The position numbers and the translations under genes were made by a program. A stretch of DNA of 64,000 nt from NCBI GenBank assembly GCA_038204955.1, contig JBBRCJ010000008.1, forward strand, positions 2,187-66,186. The letters run 5' to 3'. The DNA is from Flavobacteriales bacterium (GTDB lineage Bacteria > Bacteroidota > Bacteroidia > Flavobacteriales > Flavobacteriaceae). Of the stretch, positions 7,842 to 62,336 are shown in pieces (the stretch's first letter is position 1; each line of letters begins with the position of its first letter). The notes under the pieces were generated by a model. The model saw only the letters and a program-made list of their open reading frames with translations. It was not told the origin of the DNA and ran no database searches.

Positions 7842-7842
7842 A

Positions 7843-9156: not shown

Positions 9157-9217
9157 TTAAAAATTAAGTAATCAAAAAATGATAAAGTAAAAATTAATGT
9201 GTATTTCTATTTTAATG

Positions 9218-9985: not shown

Positions 9986-10117
9986 AGATTTTTATAGTTG
10001 CTAAGTTTAAAGAGGCTAAGTTGCTAAAAGAAAAAAGAAACAAAATTTTTACAGATGCCTCTTTTTAAAATCTATAATTTCTTAATTCATTTTAATTTCC
10101 CCCTTTAGGGATTAAGC

Positions 10118-11428: not shown

Positions 11429-11519
11429 TTTTTTAAATTTTGTTTAAAAGTTTAAGGTTTAAAATAGTTTAATTTTGTTTCAACTATTAAACAATTTTAA
11501 ACCAAATTAAACCCTTTTT

Positions 11520-12242: not shown

Positions 12243-12244
12243 AA

Positions 12245-12529: not shown

Positions 12530-12655
12530 TTTTAATTTAAAGTAAAAAGCAAATATACAATTTACAATTTAGATATCAGAATTTAGGTTTATACTTTTTT
12601 GCATTTATACCGATGAATTTCAGTAGCAGTAACTTTTAGTTTTTTAATCCACACT

Positions 12656-12718
12656 GTTCCCGCTGTCCACTATATCCTCGCTTGAAAAAAGCGAGGGATG
12701 CCGTTTCCATCGGGGCTG
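12656..12718 (+). ncRNA. 63-nt conserved structured motif, copy A (second copy at 59882..59944 on the opposite strand)
   Basis: GTTCCCGCTGTCCACTATATCCTCGCTTGAAAAAAGCGAGGGATGCCGTTTCCATCGGGGCTG. It has a 7-bp hairpin CCTCGCT/AGCGAGG. Copy B has CTGCGCC/GGCGCAG at the same place, which is three compensatory pair changes. Confidence 0.45.
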
Positions 12719-12827
12719 TTTATGAGCTTTGTTTTTTACTATTGACATTCAAAAATGCAAAATAAACCCAACTAAAATAGCAAAACTTAATTACTTTCAA
12801 TAAATTCGCAACTTATAAAATGAAAAA

Positions 12828-13367
12828 TTGAAAAAAGAAATCATAGTAATTATTGGCGGTCCAGGCACCGGAAAATCAACAGTAATTGATGCCTTGATTG
12901 AAAAAGGATATTGTTGTTACCCCGAAATTTCACGCGAAGTAACTTTAGAAGCAAAAAAACAAGGCATTGACCAATTATTTCTTGAAAAGCCATTACTTTT
13001 TAGCGAAATGCTGTTAAAAGGACGTATTAAACAGTTCGAAAACGCTTTAAACGAACCCCACAAAATTGTATTTATCGACCGTGGCATTCCCGATGTAGTT
13101 GCCTATATGGATTTTATTGGCGACCAATATCCCGAATTATTTGATAAAGCCTGTAAAGAAAATAAATACTCAAAAACATTTATATTACCTCCTTGGCAAG
13201 AAATTTATGTGAGCGATGCCGAGCGGTACGAAAATTTCGAGCAAGCCCAATTAATATACAATTATCTGGTTTTAACCTACAAAAAATATGGGTATAACCT
13301 TATTGAAGTTGAAAAAGACACTGTTGAAAATCGGGTTGATTTCATTTTGAAATCGTTACAACAATAA
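12828..13367 (+). CDS. AAA/P-loop ATPase (AAA_28-like, NadR-kinase-like)
   Basis: 179 aa with Walker A GGPGTGKST. TTG start as given by the ORF track. Confidence 0.7.
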   Translation: MKKEIIVIIGGPGTGKSTVIDALIEKGYCCYPEISREVTLEAKKQGIDQLFLEKPLLFSEMLLKGRIKQFENALNEPHKIVFIDRGIPDVVAYMDFIGDQYPELFDKACKENKYSKTFILPPWQEIYVSDAERYENFEQAQLIYNYLVLTYKKYGYNLIEVEKDTVENRVDFILKSLQQ

Positions 13368-13430
13368 ATGTCAATTAAAAAAGAATTTATTTATATCTTC
13401 AAAACGTCTAACAAATAACAAATAACATTT

Positions 13431-15320
13431 TTGACTCCGTTAGAAATTTTAAAAAAATATTGGAAACACGAAACCTTTCGAGAACCTCAAGAAGAAATAA
13501 TTGAATCGGTTTTAAAAGGCAACGATACCTTTGCTTTAATGCCAACGGGCGGCGGAAAATCTATTTGTTTTCAAATTCCGGCTTTAATTAATGATGGAAT
13601 TTGTTTGGTAATTTCGCCCCTCATAGCCTTGATGAGGGATCAAGTACAGCAATTGCAAAAAATAGATATTAAAGCCATTGCATTAACTGGCGGCATTTCA
13701 ATTGAAGAAACCTCAAATTTATTAGACAACTGCGAATTTGGGAATTACAAGTTTTTATACATTTCGCCCGAAAGGTTGCAAAACGAATGGATTTTAGAGC
13801 GCATTAAAAACCTAAAAATTAATTTAATTGCCATTGACGAAGCACATTGTGTATCGCAATGGGGACACGATTTTCGTCCAGCCTATTTAAAAATTGCAAT
13901 TTTAAAAGTACATTTCACCAAAATCCCTTTTATTGCTTTAACAGCATCGGCAACGCAACGAGTTCAAAATGATTTAATTGAGCACTTAAAATTAAAAAAT
14001 TGTGCCATTTTCACCAAATCGTTCGAGCGTAAAAACTTGAGTTATATGGTTTACGAAATGGAAGATAAAATGCAATTAATAACTCAAATTCTAAAAAAAA
14101 ATCCACTACCTTCAATTATATACGTACGAAATCGAAAATCGTGTAGCGACACCGTAAAGCAATTGCAATCATTAGGCTTTACGGCTACTTTTTATCATGG
14201 TGGACTTTCAACCAAAGATAAAAACAACCAAATGCAACTTTGGATGGACGAAAAAGTGCAAGTAATGGTAGCTACTAATGCCTTTGGAATGGGAATTGAC
14301 AAAGCCAATGTAAAAACAGTTATTCACATTCAACTACCCGAAAATTTAGAAAATTATTACCAAGAAGCAGGTCGAGCGGGTCGAAATGGAGAAAAAGCAT
14401 TTGCACTTTTATTAACTAATGCAACCGATATACTTCATTCTGAAAACATTTTTTCGGCAAATTTAGTAGATAAATCATTTTTGAATTTGGTATTTTTAAA
14501 ACTCTGTAATTATTTTCAAATCCCGTATGGCGAAGGTTTAGATGAGCAATTTAGTTTCAATATTAATCAGTTTTCAACCAAATATAATTTACCAATTTTA
14601 AAAGTTTATAATGCCCTACAATTTTTGGACCGTCAAGGAATTTTAACTTTATCGCAAGAATTTTCAGAAAAAATAATCTTACAATTCATTATTCCATCTA
14701 AAGAAGTTTTAAGATACATTAGTTTAAATCCGAAAAAGGACGAAATTATAACAACAATTTTACGAACCTATTCTGGAATATACGAAATGTTACTTCCAGT
14801 AAATGTAGGTTTGGTTGCCCAAAAAAGTAACGTAAGTGAAAATGAAGTTTTAACTGTTTTGCACCAACTTTATGAAAAACAAATTATTGATTTAAAAGCA
14901 AAAAATAATGATACTTCAATCACTTTTAATGAGATTCGTGAAGATGAACGCACTATAAATCGAATTTCAAAACATTTATTAGCTCAAAATGAATTAAAAA
15001 AAGTGCAATTTGAAGCTGTTCTTCACTACATAAAAGAAGAAAAATGTAAAAATAAAGTACTACTTTCGTATTTTGGCGAAGTAACGAAAAAAGATTGCGG
15101 AATTTGTTCATATTGCATTTCCAAAAAGAAAAAACCAAAATCAGACACTTTATTATCCAATAAAATTATAAAATTGCTACAAATTGAACCTTTAAACTCA
15201 CGTGCTTTACAAATGATGACTAAATGTTCAAAAGATGATTTACTGATTACTTTAAAAGAACTTTTAGAAGAAAATACCGTTTTAATAAATCCAAACAATA
15301 CTTATTCAATTATAAAATAA
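13431..15320 (+). CDS. recQ: RecQ-family ATP-dependent DNA helicase
   Basis: 629 aa with PTGGGKS (motif I), DEAHCVSQWGHDFRP (DEAH plus the RecQ signature) and a Zn-binding CxxC region near the C-terminus. TTG start. Confidence 0.88.
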   Translation: MTPLEILKKYWKHETFREPQEEIIESVLKGNDTFALMPTGGGKSICFQIPALINDGICLVISPLIALMRDQVQQLQKIDIKAIALTGGISIEETSNLLDNCEFGNYKFLYISPERLQNEWILERIKNLKINLIAIDEAHCVSQWGHDFRPAYLKIAILKVHFTKIPFIALTASATQRVQNDLIEHLKLKNCAIFTKSFERKNLSYMVYEMEDKMQLITQILKKNPLPSIIYVRNRKSCSDTVKQLQSLGFTATFYHGGLSTKDKNNQMQLWMDEKVQVMVATNAFGMGIDKANVKTVIHIQLPENLENYYQEAGRAGRNGEKAFALLLTNATDILHSENIFSANLVDKSFLNLVFLKLCNYFQIPYGEGLDEQFSFNINQFSTKYNLPILKVYNALQFLDRQGILTLSQEFSEKIILQFIIPSKEVLRYISLNPKKDEIITTILRTYSGIYEMLLPVNVGLVAQKSNVSENEVLTVLHQLYEKQIIDLKAKNNDTSITFNEIREDERTINRISKHLLAQNELKKVQFEAVLHYIKEEKCKNKVLLSYFGEVTKKDCGICSYCISKKKKPKSDTLLSNKIIKLLQIEPLNSRALQMMTKCSKDDLLITLKELLEENTVLINPNNTYSIIK

Positions 15321-16267
15321 TGAACAATTTACGAATCGTTTTTATGGGAACACCCGATTTTGCAGTTGGTATTTTGAATACAATTATCAAATCAAACTAT
15401 GAGGTTGTTGGTGTAATTACAGCAGCTGATAAACCAGCTGGTCGAGGACAAAAAGTAAAATATTCAGCAGTAAAAGAATATGCTCTAGAAAATAACTTAA
15501 CCCTTTTACAACCAACTAATTTAAAAGACGAAGATTTTTTAGGGAGTTTAAAAAAATTAAAAGCCAATTTGCAAGTTGTGGTGGCTTTTAGAATGTTACC
15601 CGAAGTAGTTTGGCGTATGCCCGAATTAGGAACTTTTAACCTTCACGCGTCATTGTTACCCAATTATCGTGGTGCTGCACCTATAAATTGGGCAATTATT
15701 AATGGGGAAACTAAAACAGGAGTAACTACTTTTTTTATTGATGATAAAATTGATACTGGCGCTATGATTCTAAGTAAAGCGATAGAAATTTTAGAAACCG
15801 AAACAGCAGGAGAATTACACGATAAACTAATGAATTTAGGCAGTACAGCCGTAGTTGAAACCTTGCAGTTAATAAAAAACGATTCGGTAGTAACTAAAAT
15901 TCAAGTAGACTCAACCGAAATTAAAACGGCACATAAACTAAACAAAGACAATTGTAAAATCGATTTTTCAAAATCTGGAGTTGAAATTCAAAATTTAATT
16001 AGAGGTTTATCACCTTATCCGTCCGCTTGGTGTTTCATTAAAGACGAAAAACAAGAATACAATGTAAAAATTTATGAAGCAAAATTTCATTTAGAGTACC
16101 ACTCGATACCTTTTGGTAAAATAATAGCGACCAAAAAAGAATTAAAAATTGCAATTACCAACGGTTTTATTGAAATTTTAAGTCTGCAATTTCCTGGGAA
16201 AAAGAAAATGAAAACGTCTGAAGTACTTAACGGAATGACATTTTCTGAACATTCATTGGCCTTTTAA
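15320..16267 (+). CDS. fmt: methionyl-tRNA formyltransferase
   Basis: 315 aa with MGTPDFAV, HASLLPNYRGAAPINWAI and an Fmt C-terminal domain. Confidence 0.93.
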   Translation: MNNLRIVFMGTPDFAVGILNTIIKSNYEVVGVITAADKPAGRGQKVKYSAVKEYALENNLTLLQPTNLKDEDFLGSLKKLKANLQVVVAFRMLPEVVWRMPELGTFNLHASLLPNYRGAAPINWAIINGETKTGVTTFFIDDKIDTGAMILSKAIEILETETAGELHDKLMNLGSTAVVETLQLIKNDSVVTKIQVDSTEIKTAHKLNKDNCKIDFSKSGVEIQNLIRGLSPYPSAWCFIKDEKQEYNVKIYEAKFHLEYHSIPFGKIIATKKELKIAITNGFIEILSLQFPGKKKMKTSEVLNGMTFSEHSLAF

Positions 16268-16409
16268 AGGTTTTTTAGGGTGTATATATGAACAAAACAA
16301 GTTAGTTATTAACAAATCACCCTGTTTTTAGGGTTTTTGCTTGTTTAATTAAGAAATACTTTTAAATTTGTTTCTTTTAAATTGTTTAACCAACATTAAT
16401 AACAAAATT

Positions 16410-16682
16410 ATGAACAAATCAGAATTAATTGATGCTATTGCTGCCGATGCAGGAATCTCAAAAGTTGCTGCTAAATTAGCATTAGAATCATTTTTAGGAA
16501 ACGTAGGCGGAACTTTGAAAAAAGGTGGAAGAGTATCTTTAGTAGGTTTCGGATCATGGTCAGTTTCTAAAAGAGAAGCAAGAGATGGAAGAAACCCTCA
16601 AACTGGAGCAACAATTAAAATTGCTGCTAAAAATGTAGTGAAATTTAAAGCAGGTGCAGACTTAGAAGGTTCTGTAAACTAA
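16410..16682 (+). CDS. hup: HU-family DNA-binding protein
   Basis: ORF 16368..16682. The conserved start is MNKSELIDAIA, with the ...GFGSWSVSKREARDGRNPQTG arm. Confidence 0.92.
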   Translation: MNKSELIDAIAADAGISKVAAKLALESFLGNVGGTLKKGGRVSLVGFGSWSVSKREARDGRNPQTGATIKIAAKNVVKFKAGADLEGSVN

Positions 16683-16702
16683 CACTTGTTTTTTATTAAT
16701 AT

Positions 16703-16735
16703 AAAACCATTTGCAGCTGCAAATGGTTTTTTTTT
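16703..16735 (+). terminator. rho-independent terminator after the HU gene
   Basis: Perfect palindrome AAAACCATTTGCAG/CTGCAAATGGTTTT followed by a T-run. Confidence 0.8.
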
Positions 16736-16789
16736 GATATTTATTGGAATGTTAAAAAAAAATTGTAATTTTATTAAAAATAAAGTTTT

Positions 16790-17350
16790 ATGATAACCGA
16801 CAAACTTAAAAAAGGAATGTTATTATTAGCTGAACCGTCGACTCTAACCGATATTTCGTTTAACAGAGCAGTAATTTTACTAGCCGACTATAATGATGAA
16901 GGTTCAGTAGGATTTATATTAAATAAGCCTTTAAAACATTCATTAAACGATTTAATACCAGAGATTAACTCTAATTTTGTAATTTACAATGGCGGCCCCG
17001 TTGAGCAAGATAATTTGTATTTTATTCATACCGTACCAGAATTAATTACAGGCAGTATCGAAATATCAAATGGCATTTATTGGGGCGGAAATTTTGAATT
17101 GACCAAAACACTAATCAACGAGGGTAAAATAGACAAAAACTGCGTCCGTTTCTTTTTAGGATACACGGGTTGGAGTTTCAATCAATTAGAAAAAGAACTC
17201 AAAATTAAAACTTGGATAATAACAAACAATGATTTGAAAACCGAAATTCTAAAAAAATCATCTTCACAGTTTTGGAAAGAAAAAATTGAAGAACTTGGTG
17301 GCGAATATATTATTTGGAGTAATGCTCCAGAAAATCCCATTTTAAATTAA
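16790..17350 (+). CDS. YqgE/AlgH family (UPF0301) protein
   Basis: 186 aa with LLLAEPS...F.RAVILL, GFILNKP and GGPV motifs. Confidence 0.85.
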   Translation: MITDKLKKGMLLLAEPSTLTDISFNRAVILLADYNDEGSVGFILNKPLKHSLNDLIPEINSNFVIYNGGPVEQDNLYFIHTVPELITGSIEISNGIYWGGNFELTKTLINEGKIDKNCVRFFLGYTGWSFNQLEKELKIKTWIITNNDLKTEILKKSSSQFWKEKIEELGGEYIIWSNAPENPILN

Positions 17351-34590: not shown

Positions 34591-35082
34591 TTACTGAAAA
34601 ACAATTGGTTTGGTACTTTTTGGAATTCTAACAATATGGTAAGGTTGGCTAGTTGTAAGAGCAAGACCACCAATAAAGTGCGCTAGGGAAATATTGATGG
34701 TGTTTTGATTTTCATTTATACCTACTATAGTAATTTCATTTCCACCAGAACTTTCTCTCACCACATCTATACAAACGATTACATTGTAATTGGCAAAATC
34801 AATGGTAGTAGTGGTAAAAGTACTGATAACATTGTAGCACCCTGGACAATTTGTATCTACAAGACTGTTTAAAAAAGCAGTCCAAGTAGCTTGATTAGTA
34901 ATTACCGTATTTTGCTGAGTAATACCCAAACCTGCACCTATTTTCTCTCCTTTACCAATTAAAAAAGGGTTAATAACAATAGGATAGGCAATCACTGCAG
35001 ATGAGGTTACTACTGGATCTATTGCGTTGTTGGAACAACTAAAGCAAATCAAGGAAACGAAAACTATAATAATTTTTTTCAT
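34591..35082 (-). CDS. lipoprotein, tandem paralog 1 (tentatively PrcB_C-like protease-complex subunit family)
   Basis: 163 aa with lipobox ...CFSCSNN. The C-terminal pattern IDF.NYNVIVCIDVVR..(S/T)GGNEITIVGI...SQPYHIVRIPKSTKPIVF resembles PrcB C-terminal domain proteins, from memory of that family. Confidence 0.5.
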   Translation of the reverse strand: MKKIIIVFVSLICFSCSNNAIDPVVTSSAVIAYPIVINPFLIGKGEKIGAGLGITQQNTVITNQATWTAFLNSLVDTNCPGCYNVISTFTTTTIDFANYNVIVCIDVVRESSGGNEITIVGINENQNTINISLAHFIGGLALTTSQPYHIVRIPKSTKPIVFQ

Positions 35083-35102
35083 AATTTCTATTTTTTAACT
35101 AG

Positions 35103-35140
35103 AAAAAAATGCCTTTGAAAAAACTTCAAAAGCATTTTTT
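35103..35140 (-). terminator. hairpin terminator after paralog 2
   Basis: Near-identical copy of the 34542..34579 hairpin. Confidence 0.6.
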
Positions 35141-35151
35141 ATAATTGCTTT

Positions 35152-35643
35152 TTACTGAAAAACAATTGGTTTGGTACTTTTTGGAATTCTAACAATATGG
35201 TAAGGTTGACTAAGACTTGGAATAAGTCCACCAATAACGTGCGTTAAAGATACATTGATGCTGTTTTGATTTTCATTTATCCCTACTATAGTAATTTCAT
35301 TTCCGTTGGCATTATATCGCACCACATCTATACAAACGATTACATTGTAGTTCGCAAAATCAATTGTAGTAGTGGAAAAAGTACTGATTATATTATCACA
35401 ACCTGGACAAGGAGCCCAGATTAGTCCATTCAAAAAAGAAGTCCAAGCCGATTGGGTAGTAATCACAGTATTTTGCTGTGGCAACCCTAATACAACGCCC
35501 ACATTTTCCCCTTTACCAATTAAAAAAGGGGTGATAACAATTGGATAAGCAATCACTGCAGGCGTCGCTACTACTGGATCTATTGCATTGTTGGAACAAC
35601 CAAAGTAAATGAAGGAAACTAAAACTAAAATATTTTTTTTCAT
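35152..35643 (-). CDS. lipoprotein, tandem paralog 2 (PrcB_C-like, tentative)
   Basis: 163 aa with lipobox YFGCSNN. It is collinear with paralogs 1 and 3. Confidence 0.5.
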   Translation of the reverse strand: MKKNILVLVSFIYFGCSNNAIDPVVATPAVIAYPIVITPFLIGKGENVGVVLGLPQQNTVITTQSAWTSFLNGLIWAPCPGCDNIISTFSTTTIDFANYNVIVCIDVVRYNANGNEITIVGINENQNSINVSLTHVIGGLIPSLSQPYHIVRIPKSTKPIVFQ

Positions 35644-35663
35644 AATTTCTATTTTTTAACTAG

Positions 35664-35700
35664 AAAAAAATGACCTTGAAAAACTTCAAAAGCATTTTTT
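35664..35700 (-). terminator. hairpin terminator after paralog 3
   Basis: Copy of the same hairpin (TGACCTTGAA...TTCAAAAGCA). Confidence 0.55.
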
Positions 35701-35711
35701 ATAATTGCTTT

Positions 35712-36203
35712 TTACTGAAAAACAATTGGTTTGGTACTTTTTGGAATTCTAACAATATGGTAAGGTTGACTGTCAAGAAGAAAAAAGCCACCAATAACAT
35801 GCGTTAAAGATACATTGATGGTATTTTGATTTTCATTTATACCTACTATAGTAATTTCATTTCCACCTGTAGTTCCTCTCACCACATCTATACAAACGAT
35901 TACATTGTAATTCGTAAAATCAATTGTAGTAGTGGAAAAAGTACTAATTACGTTGTTGCATCCCGGACAATTTGTGTCTACAAGACTGTTTAAAAAAGCA
36001 GTCCAAGTAGCTTGATTAGTAATTACCGTATTTTGCTGAGTAATACCCAAACCTGCACCTATTTTCTCTCCTTTACCAATTAAAAAAGGGTTAATAACAA
36101 TTGGATAGGCAATCACTGCAGGCGAGGCTACTACTGGATCTATTGCATTGTTAGAACAACCAAAGTAAATGAAGGAAACTAAAACTAAAATAATTTTTTT
36201 CAT
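35712..36203 (-). CDS. lipoprotein, tandem paralog 3 (PrcB_C-like, tentative)
   Basis: 163 aa with lipobox YFGCSNN. It starts 12 nt downstream of the S8 protease stop. Confidence 0.5.
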   Translation of the reverse strand: MKKIILVLVSFIYFGCSNNAIDPVVASPAVIAYPIVINPFLIGKGEKIGAGLGITQQNTVITNQATWTAFLNSLVDTNCPGCNNVISTFSTTTIDFTNYNVIVCIDVVRGTTGGNEITIVGINENQNTINVSLTHVIGGFFLLDSQPYHIVRIPKSTKPIVFQ

Positions 36204-40181: not shown

Positions 40182-40808
40182 ATGGAACTATTTATTTATT
40201 TGTTTGCTTCGTTATTTTCGGTTTTAAACCCGATTGGAGCGGTTCCGATTTTTGTTGGAATGACTTCGCATTTTGAAAAACCAGAGCGTTTGCGAGTGTC
40301 ACTTTGGACTTCGATTAACGTACTTTTAATTTTAATAATTTCTTATTTTGTGGGGCAATATGTACTTTCGTTTTTCGGAATTACTATAAATGCTTTGCGA
40401 ATTGCTGGGGGAATTATTATTTCTAATTCGGGTTTTGCTTTACTTAACACCAATTTTAATAAAACACGAGGTATTAATAAAAAGGTAGAAATAGCCTCGC
40501 AAAACAGAAGTGATATTTCGTTGACTCCCTTAGCGATTCCTCTATTGGCAGGACCTGGTTCTATTTCACTTTTAATTGCTTTTTATCAAGAGCATCACGC
40601 AAAGGTAACCGATATAATTTCCTCAGTAGCAGCAATTGTAATGGTTTCGGCGGTAATTTATTTAATTTTAAGAAGCGCGCATTACTTGGCGAAAGCATTG
40701 GGCCCATCGGGAATTATTGCTATTTCACGAATTGTGGGTTTTTTAACCATTGCTATCGGAGTTCAATACATTATTAGTTCGGTTTTAAGTATCATTCGTG
40801 GTATTTAA
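40182..40808 (+). CDS. MarC/NAAT family membrane protein
   Basis: 208-aa polytopic protein with VLNPIGAVPIF and PLAIPLLAGPG motifs. Confidence 0.85.
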   Translation: MELFIYLFASLFSVLNPIGAVPIFVGMTSHFEKPERLRVSLWTSINVLLILIISYFVGQYVLSFFGITINALRIAGGIIISNSGFALLNTNFNKTRGINKKVEIASQNRSDISLTPLAIPLLAGPGSISLLIAFYQEHHAKVTDIISSVAAIVMVSAVIYLILRSAHYLAKALGPSGIIAISRIVGFLTIAIGVQYIISSVLSIIRGI

Positions 40809-41369
40809 AATTTTAAATTCGCTTTCTACTTTATTTTTCAAACTTAAAATTTGTTGGTGTACCTTGGTTGTGGCTTGTAGTGCTGCTTCAATTTTAATTT
40901 GATGGTGCAATCCGTAACGCTCCAATCCTGCATCAGCTTCATAGGCTATTACTTGCAACCAAAGTGCTTCTATTTTATTTTTCGGGGTTGGTTCGTTATG
41001 GGTTATTTTGGTTTGATTTAGATGATTAGCCAAATGCATTAAATTTAGTTTTTGGTTGTATTTTTTTTGAAACTTGGCTAGTTTGTTTTTTAAAATTTGT
41101 TGGTTCAACTCTTGCAATTTTGCCTCCGATTCTAAAAACGAGGTTGCTTTTTCAAGTTGAAGTGCTTCGTGGTTTAAAATTGGTTTGTTTTTGGTTTTTA
41201 ATTTTTCTAAAAAGGCTACTATAGGTGCTAATTTTTCTATCGATTCTGCTGGCAGTTCTCGCTTGCCCGTTTCGTACATTGCTAGTTGGCTTAACGGAAT
41301 TACTAGATATTGTGCCAACAAGTCTTGCGATATTCCGAGTTGGTCTCTGAGTTCGGTTGTAAATTTCAT
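40785..41369 (-). CDS. XRE-type helix-turn-helix protein with a long coiled-coil C-terminal part
   Basis: ORF 40785..41405, with probable start MKFTTELRDQLGISQDLLAQYL....LAMYETGKRELP (HTH_3-like). It is divergent from the accessory array. Confidence 0.65.
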   Translation of the reverse strand: MKFTTELRDQLGISQDLLAQYLVIPLSQLAMYETGKRELPAESIEKLAPIVAFLEKLKTKNKPILNHEALQLEKATSFLESEAKLQELNQQILKNKLAKFQKKYNQKLNLMHLANHLNQTKITHNEPTPKNKIEALWLQVIAYEADAGLERYGLHHQIKIEAALQATTKVHQQILSLKNKVESEFKILNTTNDT

Positions 41370-41647
41370 TGTGATATTTTTTTGATAAATATACAATAGT
41401 ATCACGATAGGGTAATAATTATTTTTTAAAATAAAAAATTATCACGAACTTGTGAGTGAATGTCTTTTTAATTCTATTTTATCTCGAGTTTTGAAAATGA
41501 ATTATAAAGAATATTTTATTATATTTGAAAATGAAAAAAGCGAAAGAAGGCTTTGTTAATGTAACTAATAGTGGGTTGCAATACGATGGTTTGTTTCGGG
41601 TTTATATAAGTTAATGATATTTTGCCTAAAAAACGAATAAAATAATT

Positions 41648-42310
41648 ATGAATGAAATTATTAATTATTATGATAATCTTGCAAAATCATACGATGAGGA
41701 CAGATTTAACAATGCTTATGGAAAGTTTATAGACAAGCAAGAACGAATTTTATTAGATAAAATATTGACTGATAAAAATGAATTGATTTTAGATTTAGCT
41801 TGCGGAAGCGGAAGACTATTAAATTATGCAAATGTTGGTATCGATGCAAGCGCTAATATGGTAGAAATGGCAAAACTTAAATTCAAAAATAAAAAATTAT
41901 TTGTTAACGATGCAGAAAAAACTGTTTTGGAACCAAATTCAATTGATACAATTATTTGTTTTCATTTTTTTATGCATTTAGATAAAAATAAAATTAATAG
42001 AATTTTATTAGAATGCAACAGAGTTTTGAAAGAAAATGGCAGAATTATTTTTGACATCCCGTCAAAAAAAAGAAGAGAAATATTTAATTTTAAACCAAAT
42101 AATTGGCACGGAGGATTTAGCACTTCAATTGCAGAATTAAATCTAAATCCTAATTTCGATATAAAAAGATCTTTTGGAATCCTATTTTTTCCTATCCATC
42201 GATTTCCAAAATTTACTAGAAAATTTCTAATAAAAATTGATTTGCTAATGGCAAACTCATTTCTAAAAGAATACAGTTCATACATAGTAGTTGAATTTAA
42301 GAAAAAATGA
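41648..42310 (+). CDS. class I SAM-dependent methyltransferase
   Basis: 220 aa with SAM motif I (ILDLACGSGRL). Confidence 0.8.
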   Translation: MNEIINYYDNLAKSYDEDRFNNAYGKFIDKQERILLDKILTDKNELILDLACGSGRLLNYANVGIDASANMVEMAKLKFKNKKLFVNDAEKTVLEPNSIDTIICFHFFMHLDKNKINRILLECNRVLKENGRIIFDIPSKKRREIFNFKPNNWHGGFSTSIAELNLNPNFDIKRSFGILFFPIHRFPKFTRKFLIKIDLLMANSFLKEYSSYIVVEFKKK

Positions 42311-43029
42311 GAATTGTTAAAAAAATTAAAATATTCATAAAATTCAAAATTATATTTATTAATGACTTAATAAATGGCAATTTATTTAAGTTTGCAACAA
42401 ATCGACAAACTAACTTTCGTTATAATTCGACGATTGCAATTAAACAAGAAATTAAACCTAGTGAAACATTCGAAAATAAAATTTTTAATCTTTTGAAGGC
42501 TTCAAAAAAAATAAATGAATATGAAATTATGCCAGGCGAATTATTCTCATTTTGGAAAATAGTAGGTAATCCAAATTATGAATTTAAAAAAGGACGAACT
42601 TTATTAAATGGAAAAATTAAAGAAGAAATTGGCGGTGGAATTTGTCAAGTTTCCGGAATAGTATATTATGTAAGTCTGATTGCAGGTTTACAAATCATAG
42701 AAAGATACAATCATTCAGTTGACATTTATACAGATGAAACTAGATTTTCACCATTAGGTTTAGATGCTACTGTTGTTTATGGATATAAAGATTTAAGAAT
42801 AAAAAATAATTACAATTTCCCAATAAAATTTGAAATTCAAGTTCTTAAAAATCAAATAAAAATTGAATTGTTAAGTACAAATGAAATCAAAGAAAACAAG
42901 CTCTTTTTTGAAAAAGAGTTGCTAGAGGAAGAAATAATTGTAAAGATAAAGAATGAAAATAATGAATTAGTGAACATATCGAAATACAAAAAAAACCCAG
43001 CTATTCGAAGTGTTAATAAATACTTTTAA
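42307..43029 (+). CDS. VanW family protein
   Basis: 240 aa with GGGICQVSGIVYYVSL...ERYNHS, typical of the VanW domain. It has an ATGA overlap with the methyltransferase. Its last 11 codons lie inside repeat unit U1. Confidence 0.75.
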   Translation: MRIVKKIKIFIKFKIIFINDLINGNLFKFATNRQTNFRYNSTIAIKQEIKPSETFENKIFNLLKASKKINEYEIMPGELFSFWKIVGNPNYEFKKGRTLLNGKIKEEIGGGICQVSGIVYYVSLIAGLQIIERYNHSVDIYTDETRFSPLGLDATVVYGYKDLRIKNNYNFPIKFEIQVLKNQIKIELLSTNEIKENKLFFEKELLEEEIIVKIKNENNELVNISKYKKNPAIRSVNKYF

Positions 43030-43152
43030 AGCTCTGCGATTGACTAACAACCTCGTAGCATAATATTAAAATATCCAGCACCAAAAGTCTTCTTAAATAC
43101 TACTTTGCTCTGCGATGGTCTACTGACCTAGAAGCAAAATATTAAAAATATA
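42997..43152. repeat. tandem duplication of a ~78-bp unit U (U1 42997..43074, U2 43075..43152); a third copy is at 44912..44990
   Basis: The units start CCAGC(T/A).. and end ..AATATTAAAA(AT)ATA. Each contains an imperfect palindrome, best preserved in U3: AATACTTTGCTCTGCGA-13 nt-TCGCAGCACAATATT. Confidence 0.8.
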
Positions 43153-43364
43153 CTGTGCAAAGATCCAAACCGCTCATATAGGTAAGCAAACAATGTCAAC
43201 ACTAAATAGCTCCGAGCGGACACACAAGACTAGCTACTTGTAACTGATTACGGGAAATTCTTTGAATGTGTTGCATTATTAAAAACACAACTATTTGGTG
43301 TTTCTTACATGTTTATTGGTATATTTGTTTGTGGCTTGTGAAAGTTTTTTCACAGTCAGACGTT
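43075..43364. repeat. array junction J1 (type A left part plus 140-bp R module 43225..43364)
   Basis: Aligns with 44912..45204 along its length. The R module ends ...CACAGTCAGACGTT. It carries a -7-like TATATTTG at 43320..43327 (+). The minus strand encodes MQHIQRISRNQLQVASL, then diverges. Confidence 0.85.
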
Positions 43365-43374
43365 GTGTGACATT

Positions 43375-43701
43375 ATGAAAAACGAAATGCTAAAAGAAAT
43401 ATTCCATAACTATCCGAATCAAATTCAATTTGATGATATCATTGATTTTGAAAATTTTAATGAACGTTTATCTGTAGTTGATTGCATAGTTGTTAATATA
43501 ATCGGAGTCGAAGAAGGGTTTATTGAATTTATTTCAGATAATAATCCACCTTTAGACGATGAAATATTTTGTTGGATTTGGACAATCAGACCTGACTTAA
43601 CAAATGAAATTCTAGAAAAAACTGAAAATGAAGACTTAAAGTTTGCTCTGAAATCACATCTAAAGAACTCAATGGATAAATTTTGGGATTATATCAGTTA
43701 A
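43375..43701 (+). CDS. hypothetical small acidic protein (cassette 1, gene a)
   Basis: ORF 43363..43701, with an ATG at 43375 (MKNEMLKEIF...). I recognise no family. Confidence 0.6.
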   Translation: MKNEMLKEIFHNYPNQIQFDDIIDFENFNERLSVVDCIVVNIIGVEEGFIEFISDNNPPLDDEIFCWIWTIRPDLTNEILEKTENEDLKFALKSHLKNSMDKFWDYIS

Positions 43702-43704
43702 TTT

Positions 43705-44001
43705 ATGAGCGAAAATTATATTCAATACGCTGGAGGATACAATAAAGACAACATTAATTTTGCTGATATTGAAAATGCTATTCTCAAAATTCAGAAAATC
43801 GATGACGAACATGGTGCGTTTTGGGTTTCAATCATTACTGACGACGAAAATGTAATTGAAACAGACAAATATCTAAATTTATCGATTGTGTTTGATGGGA
43901 ATCAAATAAATTATAAAGCAAAAGATTGGCTAAAAGTTAAAGAATTTTACAAACTACTTTTAGACGAAAATTTTAACGAAATAAAACAAAAAATAAAATA
44001 A
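43705..44001 (+). CDS. hypothetical small protein (cassette 1, gene b)
   Basis: 98-aa ORF 3 nt after gene a. I recognise no family. Confidence 0.6.
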   Translation: MSENYIQYAGGYNKDNINFADIENAILKIQKIDDEHGAFWVSIITDDENVIETDKYLNLSIVFDGNQINYKAKDWLKVKEFYKLLLDENFNEIKQKIK

Positions 44002-44005
44002 CGAT

Positions 44006-44401
44006 CGCCCAGCGGCTGTTCCTATGTAAAGAACCATAAAGTTATTCACAACTTTGAGTAAGGGTTAAATGTTGGTTTTTTCGAGTATTATATTCCAAAA
44101 TAAGGCTTGTTGGAAAAGCTGGCTGCTGTTGTCCGCTCTGGATTTAGTGCCATCAATGGCGATGGTTTGCCCTGAAATTAAATCGGCGTCTTTTAGAAAA
44201 CTAACATACAGTTTGAAGGATTGTTTGAGTGCTTTGGGATTGTCAGCTACGGTGGTGCCTTCAAGACTAGTTACTTGTAACTGATTACGGGAAATTCTTT
44301 GAATGTGTAGCATCACTAAAAATACAACTATTAGGTGTTTTATCACGTTTATTGGTATATTTGTTTGATGGAATGTGCAAGTTTTTTCACAGTCTGATGT
44401 T
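44006..44401 (-). mobile_element. array junction J2 (type B): internally deleted IS1182-like transposase relic plus R module 44262..44401
   Basis: The minus-strand ORF from 44313 reads MLHIQRISRNQLQVTSLEGTTVADNP...LYVSFLKDADLISGQTIAIDGTKSRADNS. This joins an IS1182-type N-terminus (NR.Q..F.SLE..I..DNP) directly to the AIDGTK.RA.NS segment. TATATTTG is at 44356..44363 (+). Confidence 0.75.
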
Positions 44402-44431
44402 GGCAGTTATTTTACTTGAACGACACGAAAT

Positions 44432-44899
44432 ATGAGAAAATCAACTAAAATATTTCTAATAATTCTACTTATTTTTATAATTGGAATTTTTATACATCCT
44501 TCAAAAGTTATTTATGTCCCAAAAATTACGGGTAAAATAATTGGCGAAGATGGTAAACCAATAAGTGATGCAATTATTTCGAGAATCGAAGAGTTAGAAA
44601 CTGTAAATAAAAAATATGGATATTTTGATTACAAAAAATATAAATCCCAAACCACAAAAACTGATGAAAATGGAAACTTTCAACTTACTGAAAAGTCAAG
44701 AATTGAATGGTTGCATACTCCATTAGATTTGCCTTTTGCATATTGCTATGGAAATTTTGAAATTGAAAAAAATCACTACAAAACTTACATAACGAAATTT
44801 GGCGAATTTGAACAATTTCATAAATCAAATTGCTATGCTTGCGAAGAAATTGAATTTAAACCAATTATAACTCTGAAAAAAAACGGAATTAAAAAATAA
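44432..44899 (+). CDS. hypothetical membrane-anchored protein with a CarboxypepD_reg-like segment (cassette 2)
   Basis: 155 aa with an N-terminal TM and ITGKIIGEDGKPISDAII...TDENGNFQL. Confidence 0.6.
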   Translation: MRKSTKIFLIILLIFIIGIFIHPSKVIYVPKITGKIIGEDGKPISDAIISRIEELETVNKKYGYFDYKKYKSQTTKTDENGNFQLTEKSRIEWLHTPLDLPFAYCYGNFEIEKNHYKTYITKFGEFEQFHKSNCYACEEIEFKPIITLKKNGIKK

Positions 44900-44911
44900 A
44901 AAACAAAGGCT

Positions 44912-45204
44912 CCAGCTATTCAAAGTCTTCTTAAATAATACTTTGCTCTGCGATGGTCTACTGACCTCGCAGCACAATATTAAAAATATACTGTGCAAAG
45001 ATCCAGACCGCTCATATAGGTAAGCAAACAATGTCAACGGCTAAATAGCTACGAACGGTCATTCAAGACTAGTTACTTGTAACTGATTACGGGAAATTCC
45101 TTGAATGTGTTGCATCACTAAAAACACAACTATTGGGTGTTTCTTAGAAGTTTATTGGTATATTTGTTTGATGGAATGTGCAAGTTTTTTCAAAGTCTTA
45201 CGTT
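44912..45204. repeat. array junction J3 (type A: U3 plus A-left plus R module 45064..45204)
   Basis: Collinear with J1. The minus strand encodes MQHIQGISRNQLQVTSLE then a stop. TATATTTG is at 45159..45166 (+). It ends ...AAAGTCTTACGTT. Confidence 0.85.
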
Positions 45205-45234
45205 AGTAGCTATTTTCAGAAAAATCGGAATAAA

Positions 45235-45605
45235 ATGAATAATATCACAAAATTTTATAAAGAAATAAAAGAAAATTTTCCAAAAATAAATCAAAAAGCA
45301 TTTTGGAATGAATACGATTGGAATGAAGAAGGTTATGAAAATTCATTTATAATGACCGAAATCGCTCGTGAAATATGTCGCTGGAACATAAAAACAGAAT
45401 ATTGGGAACTCGATAATTTATTCAAAATTATTGAAATTGGGTTAACTGAATATGATGAAAAAACGTGTTCATTTTTAGCTACAGATTTCCTTGTAACTTT
45501 AATGGAAAAGAAAATAAAATTGTTAGAGATGAAATTAAAAAACTAATGAGAAAAAAAACTCAAGAAACTTATCGAGAAATGCTTAAGTTTTACAGAGAAG
45601 CGTAA
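45235..45605 (+). pseudogene. hypothetical small protein (cassette 3), apparently frameshifted near its 3' end
   Basis: The ORF runs from the ATG at 45235 to the TAA at 45546. The other frame, from about 45505 to 45605, reads NGKENKIVRDEIKKLMRKKTQETYREMLKFYREA* and looks like the natural C-terminus. The switch lies in the A-rich run GAAAAGAAAATAAAA. Confidence 0.45.
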
Positions 45606-45620
45606 AAACAGCTATTAACA

Positions 45621-46009
45621 GCCGTTCCTATTTAAAGCACCATAAAGTTATTCACAACTTTGAGTAAGGGTTATATGTTGGTTTTTTTCGAGTATTATAT
45701 TCCAAAATAAGGCTTGTTGGTAAAGTTGGCTGCTGTTGTCCGCTCCGGATTTGGTGCCATCAATGGCGATGGTTTGCCCTGAAATTAAATCGGCATCTTT
45801 TAAAAAACTAACATACAGTTTGAAGAGTTGTTTGAGCGCTTTGGTATTGTCAGCTACGGTGGTGCCTTCAAGACTAGATACTTGTAACTGATTACGGGAA
45901 ATTCTTTGAATGTGTTGCATCATTAAAAATACAACTATTAGGTGTTTCTTACAGGTTTATTGGTATATTTGTTTGATGGAATGTGCAAGTTTTTTCATAG
46001 TCTGACGTT
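45621..46009 (-). mobile_element. array junction J4 (type B): a second copy of the same deleted IS1182-like relic plus R module 45869..46009
   Basis: The minus ORF 45648..45923 reads MMQHIQRISRNQLQVSSLEGTTVADNTKALKQLFKLYVSFLKDADLISGQTIAIDGTKSGADNS. It has the same deletion junction as J2. TATATTTG is at 45964..45971 (+). Confidence 0.75.
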
Positions 46010-46048
46010 GTGTGAAATATTAAAAAAACTGAATTAAAGATATACAAA

Positions 46049-46600
46049 ATGAAGAAACTAATAATCTTTTTTTGCTTAACTGTATTTACTAGTTGCTCTA
46101 TTAAGTATTTTACAACTAACAAAGACTACTGGAGACCTATTGACAATAATGTATTCACCTATAAAAAAAATAACTTCAGGCTTAATAATTCAATAATAGA
46201 CACAACAAAAATATATTGTAAGGCAGTTCCAGAGGAAAATCCAAAATATTTTGAATGTTACAGATTTTTTTCAACAGGACAAGTACTATCATACAGTTTC
46301 CGCACAAAAATTGATACCACTGCTTTTTCTAATATAAATATCGGTGGAGTTGGATATTATCACATTAAAAAAAATATTATTCGAATTCAACAATTTACAG
46401 TTTATGCTGAACATTTCACAAAAGGTGGCGGCGGAGCGTTAATTCATAATTATGCAACTATTAAAAATGATAGTATTATAATGGATCACGAACACATTGG
46501 AAAAAATTATTACGCAAATAGAAACATACTTGAAGGTGGATATAAACTTATTTACAAAAAAACAAAAATAGAAGCACCAAAATTAAAACCAATTTGGTAA
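46049..46600 (+). CDS. hypothetical lipoprotein (cassette 4)
   Basis: 183 aa with signal peptide and lipobox FTSCS. I recognise no family. Confidence 0.6.
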   Translation: MKKLIIFFCLTVFTSCSIKYFTTNKDYWRPIDNNVFTYKKNNFRLNNSIIDTTKIYCKAVPEENPKYFECYRFFSTGQVLSYSFRTKIDTTAFSNINIGGVGYYHIKKNIIRIQQFTVYAEHFTKGGGGALIHNYATIKNDSIIMDHEHIGKNYYANRNILEGGYKLIYKKTKIEAPKLKPIW

Positions 46601-46624
46601 CAAAAACAAATACTGCACGCAATA

Positions 46625-46870
46625 GCCGTTCCTATTTAAAGCGCCACAAAGTTATTCAAAACTTTGAGTAAGGGTTATATTTGGTTTTTTTCGAGTATTA
46701 TTTCAGCAATAAGGCTTGTTGGTAAAGTTGGCTGCTGTTGTCCGCTCTGGATTTGGTGCCATCAATGGCGATGGTTTGCCCTGAAATTAAATCGGCGTCT
46801 TTTAGAAAACTAACATACAGTTTGAAGAGTTGTTTGTGCCATTGTGCAAGTTTTTTCAAAGTCTGACGTT
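46625..46870 (-). mobile_element. array junction J5 (type B with an additional internal deletion)
   Basis: It matches J2/J4 up to ...GTTTGAAGAGTTGTTTG, then jumps to TGCCATTGTGCAAGTTTTTTCAAAGTCTGACGTT. TTGTTTGA occurs at both parental positions in J4. The transposase start and the TATATTTG motif are lost. Confidence 0.75.
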
Positions 46871-46946
46871 AGGCGACAGCAGTTCAGAAAACTGCAAAAA
46901 AGAAAATTGAATTGAAAAAAAACTTATCTTTGAAAAAAATGTAGAA

Positions 46947-47195
46947 ATGGCAAAAACAATTTCAATAGAATACCCAAATTTCCTTGCAAATTCGATGAGG
47001 ATGAACAAGAGTGATTTTGAAAACGAGATAAAAGTAAGCGGTCTTGTAAAATTATTTGAACTTGGAAAAATATCGACAGGAATCGCATCAAAAGCATTGG
47101 GAATTTCCAGAATAGCGTTTTTAGAATTATTAGGAAAGTACAAAGTAGGTTTTCTGAACTTTGACGATTTAGACTCTGACTACGAAAATGCGTAA
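46947..47195 (+). CDS. UPF0175-family antitoxin-like protein (cassette 5)
   Basis: 82 aa. The ...LFELGKISTGIASKALGISRIAFLELLGKY... pattern fits UPF0175. Its own -7-like TATCTTTG is at 46925..46932. Confidence 0.7.
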   Translation: MAKTISIEYPNFLANSMRMNKSDFENEIKVSGLVKLFELGKISTGIASKALGISRIAFLELLGKYKVGFLNFDDLDSDYENA

Positions 47196-47670
47196 AGTAG
47201 TTTCAAATACAACGCCAATTATTTCTCTTTTAAAAGTTGGGAAACTAGAAATATTGAAGGAACTTTATCAAGAAATATTTATTCCTTATGAAGTTTATCT
47301 TGAAATCGAAGCGGGAAAGAACAAGGAATATTATATAGACTTAACAAAAGAAAAATGGATTCGAATTGTAAAAATACAAAGCGAAAAATCACTTTTATTT
47401 TTCTTAGATTTAGACAAAGGTGAAGCTGAAGCAATAGTTTTAGCCAACGAAACAAATGCAGATTTAATAATTTTAGATGAAACTTTGGGAAGATTCCACG
47501 CAAAACATATAGGATTAAATGTAACGGGGACAATTGGAATACTTTTGAAAGCAAAAGAAAACGGAATAATCGACAAAATAAAACCAATACTAAACGAACT
47601 TTCACAAAAAGGCATTTGGTTAAGTGAAACATTGATAAAACAAACCTTGACAAAAGCATCTGAAACTTAA
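47188..47670 (+). CDS. DUF3368 (PIN-like) toxin-type protein (cassette 5)
   Basis: 160 aa. It overlaps the antitoxin by 8 nt. The pattern SNTTPIISL..(I)G.L.LL.......I...V..E, LDKGEAEAI.LA, ILDE..GR fits the DUF3368/PIN-like family. Confidence 0.7.
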   Translation: MRKVVSNTTPIISLLKVGKLEILKELYQEIFIPYEVYLEIEAGKNKEYYIDLTKEKWIRIVKIQSEKSLLFFLDLDKGEAEAIVLANETNADLIILDETLGRFHAKHIGLNVTGTIGILLKAKENGIIDKIKPILNELSQKGIWLSETLIKQTLTKASET

Positions 47671-47688
47671 ATTAAGTATTCTGCCGCT

Positions 47689-47719
47689 CGCCCAGCAGAT
47701 GTTCCTATATAAAGCACCA
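47689..47719. repeat. 31-bp stub of the type B junction left end (array terminus)
   Basis: CGCCCAGCAGATGTTCCTATATAAAGCACCA matches the first ~31 nt of J2 (44006..). Similarity then stops. Confidence 0.7.
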
Positions 47720-47747
47720 GATGGCGCGGATATAGGTCAACGGTTGG

Positions 47748-47882
47748 ATAGCGCGGATTTACAATCCGTGCCCACAAACAAAGGCAAAAAAGGATATAGT
47801 TTTAATAAGGTTTAAGATTTTTAAAAAAAATAAAGATTATTATTGAAAGTGTTAGCGTGCACGGATTGCAAATCTGCGCTAT
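47748..47882. repeat. 24-bp inverted repeats flanking an 87-bp AT-rich spacer
   Basis: Left arm ATAGCGCGGATTTACAATCCGTGC (47748..47771). The right arm GCACGGATTGCAAATCTGCGCTAT (47859..47882) is its reverse complement at 22 of 24 positions. Confidence 0.8.
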
Positions 47883-48140
47883 CGGGGTTACAATTTATTT
47901 TTTGGATATGTATTTTTTTGAAATTGTCTAATTTATTTTAAAGTCTTTGCAGTTTAAAGTTTGAGTATCGTCGGCTAAGAATTTTTATTTATGCTATTTT
48001 ATTCAGATATAAAATAATAAATCGATCATTTGGTTTCAATTTTTAGTAGATCCGTAATTTTGTATTAGGTAGTTAAGCTGTAAACAAATACCTTAGCCAA
48101 CCTATTTTTAATTAATTAAAAACTCAGAAATTTATTTATT

Positions 48141-59747: not shown

Positions 59748-59881
59748 ATGGTTATAACATGTAACCAATGATGCTTATTTACTATTTGCAAAATTAGAAT
59801 TTATTTTTTGATTTTGAAACAATTGATTTTATTAATGAACATGGGTAACTTTCAAAATTGACAATCACTATCTTGGTCAAT

Positions 59882-59944
59882 CAGCCCCGAGTGCAGTGGC
59901 ATCCTGCGCCTTTTTTAGGCGCAGATATAACGGAAAGCGGGAAC
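59882..59944 (-). ncRNA. 63-nt conserved structured motif, copy B
   Basis: The minus strand reads GTTCCCGCTTTCCGTTATATCTGCGCCTAAAAAAGGCGCAGGATGCCACTGCACTCGGGGCTG. It is collinear with 12656..12718, with compensatory stem changes. Confidence 0.45.
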
Positions 59945-59980
59945 GATGTTTGATGATTGACCTTGACTGTTGCTTTAAAT

Positions 59981-62173: not shown

Positions 62174-62336
62174 TTTAAATTGTTTTAGATAGTGATTATG
62201 AATTCAGGTCTAAATCCTTCGATAATCGTACTACTATCTTGTGTTATACTTAATTAATTTATATTAGATATTGAAATACATTTAGTGGATATTGTAAAAT
62301 AAATTCAACAGACACTGAAGTAAATTCAGTAAAAAA

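Follow-up and report, generated by a model that had tools for sequence, protein, structure and literature searches.

Integrons and the rAID-1 arrays of Bacteroidales are the described systems closest to a row of five small-gene cassettes found in a Flavobacteriales bacterium (assembly GCA_038204955.1, contig JBBRCJ010000008.1, positions 2,187 to 66,186; this whole stretch of 64,000 nucleotides is called the window). Reports of integrons exist for Bacteroidota as a phylum (PMC8618304), and IntegronFinder 2.0 recorded one complete integron in complete genomes of the phylum, in Salinibacter (PMC9024848). Complete integrons are rarely reported in Bacteroidota, and functional study has been limited to the rAID-1 arrays of gut Bacteroidales. 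These are defined by a XerD-like recombinase at the 5' end with over 44% identity to BF9343_RS08045, at least two co-oriented downstream genes of low G+C content, and homologues of immunity genes against type VI secretion or polymorphic toxins (10.1101/471110; PMC12247911). A third category, CALIN, is used by IntegronFinder for at least two attC sites without an integrase.

Mobile elements can change the expression of the genes beside them. In Bacteroides, insertion sequences (IS) upstream of the cfiA, cepA and erm genes carry outward promoters that activate these genes. Two kinds of element insert in one orientation and specifically into the attC sites of cassette arrays, namely IS1111-attC elements (IS110 family) and group IIC-attC introns; the introns have outward promoters able to express downstream cassettes (PMC3001079).

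The locus described here combines traits of these systems. It is probably an integrase-less array of the integron type in which a promoter-carrying element of the IS1182 family that targets attC has overwritten the attC sites. Like integrons and CALIN, it consists of unrelated small open reading frames (ORFs) facing one way, with G/TT and R'' boundaries (a slash marks a crossover point or the tip of an IS), complementarity between the two ends of a cassette, a toxin-antitoxin cassette and no adjacent integrase; homologous cassettes occur in arrays with canonical attC sites. It differs in having one complete attC-like site, the other junctions being IS relics of 290-400 bp without the right half of attC, and in having a promoter box before four of its five cassettes rather than a single Pc promoter. 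The recombinase of related arrays differs from that of integrons too: it is co-oriented with the array and scores below the cutoff of the IntI model (TIGR02249, 206.7 vs 265). Judged as a classical integron, no adjacent IntI integrase was found in the window; two of its cassettes, c3 and c4, recur as discrete units in other attC arrays, and G/TT boundaries with own-end complementarity are found in c3, c4 and c5 and are weak in c1 and c2.

Cassettes and their homologues in attC arrays

The array (Table 1) comprises seven co-oriented ORFs of 82-183 aa, and its cassettes have a G+C content of 26-29% compared with 31-41% in the flanks. The original prediction for this stretch had described five ORF blocks between conserved repeats, resembling either an integron or an array of orphan immunity genes. 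The coordinates of the blocks hold; the third, 45235-45605, had been taken for one ORF and is frameshifted. Compared with the intact copy in another array (L017; comparison loci are cited by such numbers), it has a 1-nt deletion after 45505, in an A-run, and represents either a pseudogene or a homopolymer sequencing error. The two ORFs of c1 match no Pfam, NCBIfam, PADLOC or PHROG family at the usual library significance. The last block was correctly recognised as a toxin-antitoxin pair: an antitoxin-like UPF0175 gene and a PIN-like DUF3368 toxin gene overlap by 8 nt (Pfam 61.2 and 63.0 bits, both over the cutoffs; PADLOC candidate PDC-S70, 9e-53), and the pair is predicted to be of type II.

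Table 1. Features of the cassette array and of its surroundings, in positions of the window
Feature	Positions	Strand	Remarks
Cassette array and junction repeats	42997-47749	+ (ORFs)	Five ORF blocks
A0	42997-43074	+	Partial type-A left module without attached IS relic; starts with R''-like ACCCAGC
A1, type-A left module	43075-43224	+	Two short hairpins; possible degenerate core of the right inverted repeat, ACTGTGCAAAGA, at ~43155
R1, IS1182-family left-end relic	43225-43364	-	Left inverted repeat AACGTCTGACTGTGAAAAAAC, 5' untranslated region, transposase codons 1-17; TAnnTTTG (+) at 43320-43327
Cassette c1	43362-44013	+	ORFs 43375-43701 (108 aa) and 43705-44001 (98 aa); 5' end GTTGTGTGAC, R''-like box CGCCCAGC
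B1	44014-44261	-	attC-like left half 44014-44036 (+ sense); transposase relic 44119-44244
R2, IS1182 left-end relic	44262-44401	-	TAnnTTTG box (+) at 44356-44363
Cassette c2	44399-44916	+	ORF 44432-44899, 155 aa; N-terminal membrane anchor, weak DUF6795 match
A2, type-A left module	44917-45063	+	From BLASTN; the match begins at 44912
R3, IS1182 left-end relic	45064-45204	-	TAnnTTTG box (+) at 45159-45166
Cassette c3	45202-45619	+	DUF7674-family gene 45235-45605; 5' end GTTAGTAGCTATTTT, R'' box AAAACAGCTATTAAC
B2	45620-45868	-	attC-like left half and IS relic; internal deletion as in B1
R4, IS1182 left-end relic	45869-46009	-	TAnnTTTG box (+) at 45964-45971
Cassette c4	46007-46623	+	ORF 46049-46600, 183-aa lipoprotein; 5' end GTTGTGTGAAATATT, R'' box AATACTGCACGCAAT
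B3 with R tail	46624-46870	-	Further deletion: codon ~116 joined to the last 41 nt of R (46830-46870)
Cassette c5	46868-47696	+	UPF0175 46947-47195, DUF3368/PIN-like 47188-47670; 5' end is canonical R' GTTAGGC
Terminal attC-like site (candidate)	47690-47749	+	R'' GCCCAGC, L'' GTTCCTATAT, loop, L' ATATAGGtcAAC, R' GTTGGAT
HTH_3 gene	40785-41369	-	Divergent
Methyltransferase-VanW operon	41648-43029		Low G+C; between the HTH_3 gene and the array
VanW-family ORF	42307-43029		Last 33 nt overlapped by A0
Flavo-1 small RNA match	12652-12721	-	Rfam
Flavo-1 small RNA match	59879-59948	+	Rfam
S4-Flavobacteria ribosomal leader	62194-62227	-	Rfam

Each cassette runs from a left G/TT crossover to a right R'' box (...AAC or ...AGC). 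The ends were compared in a fixed register, the first 15 nt from GTT against the 15 nt ending at the R''-like box. Complementarity of a cassette's own ends is 13/15 in c3, 11/15 in c4 and 8/15 in c5 (13/16 with one gap in a hand alignment). The background frequency is 3e-5 for at least 13/15, 5e-4 for at least 11/15 and 0.036 for the 8/15 of c5; the cognate pair of ends has the best score in its row for c3 and c4 and the joint-best for c5.

Genomic contexts of homologues were traced for two cassette genes, c3 and c4. The c3 cassette shares 95.5% of its nucleotides (401/420) with a cassette of L017, from ACGTT to the R'' box (...CTAAC) plus a few nucleotides, and outside these limits the two loci are unrelated (27% identity on the left, 42% on the right). 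The DNA directly left of the cassette is the right end of an attC site in L017 (..CGCCAAGCGGCGGAAC/GTT) and the left inverted repeat of an IS in the window (..TTTTCAAAGTCTTAC/GTT). A further c3 homologue is present in L019. For c4, the window, L015 and L007 have the same non-coding ends (cGTT(R)nG(K)G(M)AATATT at the 5' end, AATAC(W)GC...AA(Y)/AGC at the 3' end), and homology stops there. Homologues of c4 lie in three other unidirectional arrays with unlike conserved junctions (L007-L009, L012/L013 and L015) and also in repeat-free islands (L010, L011). Scanning metagenomes with a c4 profile gave three loci, two of them on contigs already in the set, and the exact proteins of the window matched only on fragmentary Logan contigs of SRR19962011, broken at the repeats.

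The junctions of L007 and L015 are of the attC kind. In L007 the layout is R'' ...AAC, five nucleotides, L'' GCAAGC, then L' GCTTGC, five nucleotides and R' GTT..., and each cassette's 5' end complements its own R'' (e.g. GTTATGCCC with GGGCATAAC, and GTTAGGTGCAATATTGCC with GGGCAATACAGCACCTAAC). The L015 junctions are imperfect palindromes of 125 nt with a folding z-score of about -2. The score is near 0 both for the left segments of the B junctions and for L007, and folding energy by itself is therefore no guide to attC sites here. The c3 and c4 homologues are bona fide cassettes in canonical attC arrays, and they have different neighbours in different arrays. The expectation that these are integron-like mobile cassettes without a nearby recombinase is thereby borne out, since the c3 and c4 homologues carry the same non-coding ends.

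The window itself ends its array with a candidate attC-like site, one of two matches to a relaxed attC skeleton in 128 kb (both strands). Its left half corresponds to the first 31 nt of the B junctions (87% identity to B1), and the R''/L'' motif ATCGCCCAGC..CCTATGT recurs 3' of a cassette in L012. That locus (L012 1-4723, also L013) is a fourth type of unidirectional small-ORF array, built around a 70%-identical c4 homologue, in which the junctions have a hairpin CACATCnTAAnnGTGTG followed by TTTTTTGTTAGATTTGTTTTTAAG, a promoter-like TAnnTTTG box.

A c4 homologue of 63% identity is found in yet another setting, a conserved operon of an extracytoplasmic-function sigma70 gene, DUF6452, DUF6048 and c4 (L005 6195-8552, and L006). 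The c4 family is therefore not exclusively cassette-borne, and it may work together with the two DUF proteins.

Co-oriented short genes of low G+C, repetitive intergenic sequences that were called reminiscent of integrons, and a Bacteroidota host are also what rAID-1 arrays have (10.1101/471110; PMC12247911), and the array could accordingly encode immunity proteins against contact-dependent toxins, its recombinase being lost or located elsewhere. The predicted products, small cytoplasmic helical proteins and lipoproteins, would suit such a function, and the plasmid array described below, the prototype of this kind of locus, has a co-oriented Xer-like recombinase as rAID-1 does. The cassette proteins themselves give this reading no support: no immunity family was found among them in Pfam or NCBIfam, and PADLOC returned the toxin-antitoxin pair only. 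Structure prediction, which had been proposed as a check against immunity families, gave no significant fold match for c3 or c4. The c3 family is predicted to be a small helical protein without a significant fold match in the PDB; the c4 model is beta-rich and of low-to-moderate confidence (mean predicted local distance difference test score 66.8), its best, non-significant matches being calycin-type barrels. PDB sequence searches with c3 and c4 also returned nothing. The window lacks the 5' XerD-like recombinase that defines rAID-1, neither toxin genes nor fragments of them were seen, one c4 homologue belongs to the sigma70-DUF6452-DUF6048 operon, the host belongs to Flavobacteriia and not Bacteroidales, and the junctions are IS relics. 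Relatives of the rAID-1 recombinase have been reported from Bacteroidales only (10.1101/471110). An orphan-immunity array, one of the two identities first proposed, is thus quite improbable.

IS1182-family relics in the junctions

The junctions are direct repeats of 290-400 bp, made of a right-hand module (R) and a left-hand module of type A or type B. BLASTN against the whole window and a repeat search reproduced all the R, A and B coordinates of the original prediction and extended them in two places: the R tail reported as 28 bp (46843-46870) is indeed present, and measures 41 nt (86-88% identity to R), and type A, listed at two sites, has a partial third copy, A0 (77-80% identity to A1 and A2). 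Between any two of the four R copies identity is 88.7-93.6%, and every copy terminates in ...GTC(A/T)(G/T)A(C/T)GTT, as had been noticed. A1 and A2 agree at 93% over 137 nt; the three type-B copies (44006-44261, 45621-45868 and 46625-46842) are 92-95% identical, and a stub at 47689-47719 has 87% identity to the first 31 nt of B1. Copies of A, B and R are confined to 42997-47719 in the 64 kb, far beyond chance.

The minus strand of R and B consists of remnants of an IS1182-family transposase gene. With the full-length relative from a Chryseobacterium plasmid as tblastn query, transposase codons 1-26 and ~110-151 are recovered in the relics at about 70-83% amino acid identity (E 1e-15 to 1e-19). 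The assignment relies on these tblastn results, because the match to the NCBIfam profile transpos_IS1182 is weak (E 2.4e-4, 20 bits, cutoff 270); annotated IS1182 transposases share 34-38% identity with the transposase of the plasmid. The transposase relic that had been suspected in the junctions can thus be given a family. The repeats had also been proposed as the recombination module of the array, and this does not hold: R and B are relics of an IS1182-family element, lying at attC sites and largely replacing them.

The anatomy of the relics follows that of the plasmid IS. R contains the left terminal inverted repeat (IRL), the 5' untranslated region and transposase codons 1-17, to which B adds codons 18-26 and ~110-151 together with ~30 nt of attC-like left half. 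The right-hand end of R (..GTTTTTTCACAGTCTGACGTT) is the IRL, and the plasmid IS end AACGTCAGTCTGTGAAAAAAC agrees with it at 19-20 of 21 positions (19/21 for R1). The start codon lies 88-89 nt inside the IRL in relic and plasmid IS alike, with the order and spacing of IRL, untranslated region and ATG kept. B1 has lost codons ~27-109 by an in-frame deletion lying between two DNP motifs, and the internal deletions are identical in all three B relics. No inverted-repeat partner (a right terminal inverted repeat, IRR) is recognisable in B, and the only candidate is a doubtful degenerate core in type A. B junctions keep only R'' and L'' (~30 nt) of attC, without an L' partner for L''. Since the B relics share their deletions and have no recognisable IRR, they cannot have transposed in their present form or decayed separately, and are copies of one another.

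The left part of type A has weak and conflicting similarity to the transposase, on opposite strands (tblastn, E 0.013-0.09). Its reading as transposase codons 54-72 was considered and set aside as unproven, as the E 0.013 match crosses a tandem-duplication boundary and a rival weak match lies on the opposite strand. R was also considered as a bridge-RNA or small-RNA module and rejected, with Rfam empty at R and the region accounted for as the 5' end of an IS.

Relatives of the relic are few. The exact R 21-mer has a single match in ~185,000 species genomes (genome_contigs), a chance occurrence in cyanobacterial coding sequence. The relic ORF, searched against 5.8e9 proteins, found its own copy and three short fragments (74-81% identity over about half of the query). 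DNA and protein searches of plasmids for further copies of the IS gave the Chryseobacterium copy only, other matches being distant IS1182 transposases below 60% identity.

An ordinary variable island, in which one IS or miniature inverted-repeat transposable element (MITE) inserted repeatedly and decayed while the likeness to cassettes arose by coincidence, would explain why the junctions hold IS relics, given that IS copies commonly gather in variable regions. This explanation is largely refuted and is very improbable. The B relics, lacking a recognisable IRR and sharing identical internal deletions, neither transposed nor decayed independently. The traits of a MITE (both terminal inverted repeats, target-site duplications, dispersed copies) are not seen; of the two terminal inverted repeats needed for the mobility of an IS, the IRL alone is present. 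In four other arrays, homology to c3 and c4 breaks off precisely at attC boundaries, and own-end complementarity is significant for both. The junction sequence is thus no scattered MITE or IS, and homologues of the cassette genes stand in different arrays beside different neighbours.

An IS at the crossover point and a predicted outward promoter box

The only full-length relative of the IS lies inside a cassette array, on plasmid NZ_CP041688 of Chryseobacterium sp. SNU WT5 (L020). Positions 1687-17075 of the plasmid form a complete integron-like element, with a 347-aa tyrosine recombinase co-oriented with about ten downstream genes. The recombinase is named 'site-specific tyrosine recombinase/integron integrase' by the PGAP annotation; among NCBIfam models it scores 221.5 bits with recomb_XerA_Arch (just over cutoff), 206.7 with integrase_gron (TIGR02249, cutoff 265) and 194.8 with XerD. 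attC sites and own-end complementarity (e.g. 14/15) are seen at the junctions that were read, and one attC family is common to this array and L017. The array has been invaded three times, in each case against the direction of the cassettes: by the IS1182-family element, by a group II intron and by an IS of the IS110 family. The plasmid further contains three copies of an 'empty cassette' (GTTGGGAAAAATCGCCCTTTGGGACGATTTTTCCCAAC plus a palindromic attC of 150 nt).

The IS occupies the attC crossover in three independent loci. On the plasmid, its left neighbour is the right end of an attC site (...GGGTAGCCGCAA/AACGTT..., read ...CGCCACCTTCGGGTAGCCGCAA/AACGTTGGGCTGTG...) and its right neighbour is the next cassette (..ACGTT/ATCGGCAATTAT, read ...CACAGACTGACGTT/ATCGGCAATTATAT), whose own ends agree at 13/15. 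L019 has three cassettes flanked by GH97 and mfd genes, and Pfam detects no recombinase family in genes called up to 10 kb to either side; one of its junctions ends ...CTATTTTTGTAGGAAAGATTGTTAGGTTTTTTCACAGTCTGACGTT/GGTGGC, an independent relic in which the same IRL abuts the GTT of the cassette. In the window, all five cassettes begin directly after the IRL. The IRL points toward the downstream cassette at all three loci.

One-orientation insertion specifically into the attC sites of cassette arrays would be the trait shared with IS1111-attC elements and group IIC-attC introns, and the plasmid array likewise holds an IS110-family IS and a group II intron. The present element, by contrast, is an IS1182-family IS of the DDE type and has terminal inverted repeats; it lies at the AAC/GTT crossover itself and is represented here by several relics without an identifiable IRR, which have replaced part of attC.

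TAnnTTTG is the consensus of the -7 promoter element in Bacteroidetes. Such a box (TATATTTG or TATTTTTG) is aligned on the outward strand of R, ~38-45 nt from the IS tip, and hence 38-45 nt before the left boundary of four of the five cassettes. The L019 junction has the box at the same distance from its IRL. Before c5 the R box is deleted, and c5 has a TAnnTTTG box of its own, TATCTTTG, at ~46925-46932. The R box is predicted to be an IS-borne outward promoter for four cassettes; sigma-70 promoter and terminator scans are uninformative for Bacteroidota. As in the Bacteroides IS, a -7 box near the IS end points out toward the adjacent gene; the difference is that the predicted box is repeated here in tandem before four unrelated cassettes and is tied to a recombination site.

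The same relic ends raise the question of whether the array is still active, with the IS end (...GAC G/TT), perhaps together with the attC left half, serving a recombinase encoded elsewhere as a surrogate or attI-like site. Integron integrases do use secondary GTT sites. All five cassettes start at the identical position after the IRL, c5 opens with the canonical GTTAGGC, and the IS tip GTCTGAC/GTT is similar to the 2R-1R ends of some attC sites (e.g. GGTCAACgGTT). The relics also lie 6-12% apart (R copies) and c3 only 4.5% from its copy in another organism (L017), a hint that cassettes were exchanged after the relics had formed; selection acting on c3, with the relics decaying neutrally, could also account for the gap. 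A folded attC cannot form at junctions where L'' has no L' partner, and no recombinase was seen in the window. Continued activity is on balance unlikely.

The preferred account, an integrase-less cassette array overwritten by an IS, would proceed as follows. The cassettes would belong to an integron-like pool of Flavobacteriales, of which the recombinase and attC array of NZ_CP041688 are the complete form. An IS1182-family element would have inserted at the AAC/GTT crossover of an attC site, its IRL facing the downstream cassette. Deletions would then have taken the right half of attC and the greater part of the transposase gene, and apparently the IRR as well. The relic would finally have been copied among junctions and homogenised by recombination or gene conversion, as suggested by the deletions common to the B relics and by the 88-95% identity of the repeat copies. 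The cassettes would probably be immobile by canonical attC x attC recombination, and they could still be lost or rearranged through homologous recombination between the 290-400-bp direct repeats.

Several points weigh against this account. Own-end complementarity is weak in c1 (7/15) and c2 (8/15), and the window has one complete attC-like site, whose hairpin has the stability of shuffled sequence (z ~0). Targeting of AAC/GTT is drawn from three loci; the IS ends themselves read ACGTT, so that the exact site of insertion is ambiguous, as is the target duplication (ACGT or ACGTT). Promoter activity is deduced from a consensus box only. The left module of type A and ~80 nt of B (44037-44118) are not explained by the transposase comparison. 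Gene conversion of an IRR-less relic would have had ~30 nt of homology on its left and essentially none on its right, and the mechanism of spread is uncertain. Finally, no recombinase was seen within the 64-kb window.

A bolder extension, more doubtful than likely, is that an IS1182-family lineage in Flavobacteriales is a dedicated invader of attC, entering at AAC/GTT in a single orientation and carrying an outward promoter. Its relic, spread here to every junction, may now combine the roles of promoter and surrogate site for cassettes that continue to be exchanged; the c3 copy of 95.5% identity in a canonical array would fit.

Surroundings and significance of the array

The array is set in chromosomal housekeeping DNA, between a VanW-family gene on one side and a gene for a PAS histidine kinase on the other; Pfam assigned housekeeping-type families, or none, to 22 ORFs outside the array. 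The absence of a recombinase beside the array had already been noticed. The recombinase of a Flavobacteriia array, used as tblastn query on the 64-kb window and not on the genome outside it, gave no match at E<=10, and Pfam found no recombinase family among the 22 ORFs (other large ORFs were not scanned). The divergent HTH_3 gene, at first considered the only neighbour, is present where it was placed, and a methyltransferase-VanW operon intervenes between it and the array. A direct repeat TATCACGA...TATCACGA, operator-like in appearance, lies at ~41400-41450 in the divergent promoter region of the HTH_3 gene and this operon. The methyltransferase-VanW pair was considered as a further cassette and rejected: its 3' end has the R''-like ACCCAGC, and a matching 5' end was not found.

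Just past the array, at 47747-47883, stands an inverted repeat with 34-nt arms that are 85% complementary and 69 nt apart; each arm contains the hairpin GCGCGGATTTACAATCCGTGC, which occurs nowhere else in the window. The structure may be a MITE-like element or one resembling repetitive extragenic palindromes (REP-like). Farther away, 34591-36203 (minus strand) holds three tandem paralogous ORFs of 163 aa (34591-35082, 35152-35643 and 35712-36203), downstream of an S8 peptidase gene; the one paralogue tested has no Pfam family. Rfam, which has no attC model, found one tRNA, the two Flavo-1 RNAs and the S4-Flavobacteria leader in the window and nothing more; the Flavo-1 and S4 matches place the host in the Flavobacteriia.

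In the literature, no description was found of an IS1182-family element tied to attC sites, an absence that is no proof of novelty. If the dedicated-invader idea is true, the lineage would join IS1111-attC elements and group IIC-attC introns as the third class of element that targets attC; if the relic also serves as a surrogate insertion point, the array would show an IS fragment domesticated as its scaffold. The relic is in addition a natural marker for the copying of junctions between cassettes, which bears on the origin of homogeneous attC arrays. Together with the comparison loci, this locus shows a common pool of integron-type cassettes among environmental Flavobacteriales, including small integrase-less arrays among housekeeping genes. 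If targeting and promoter activity hold, insertion of such an element would be a new route by which silent cassettes come to be expressed and arrays come to be frozen.

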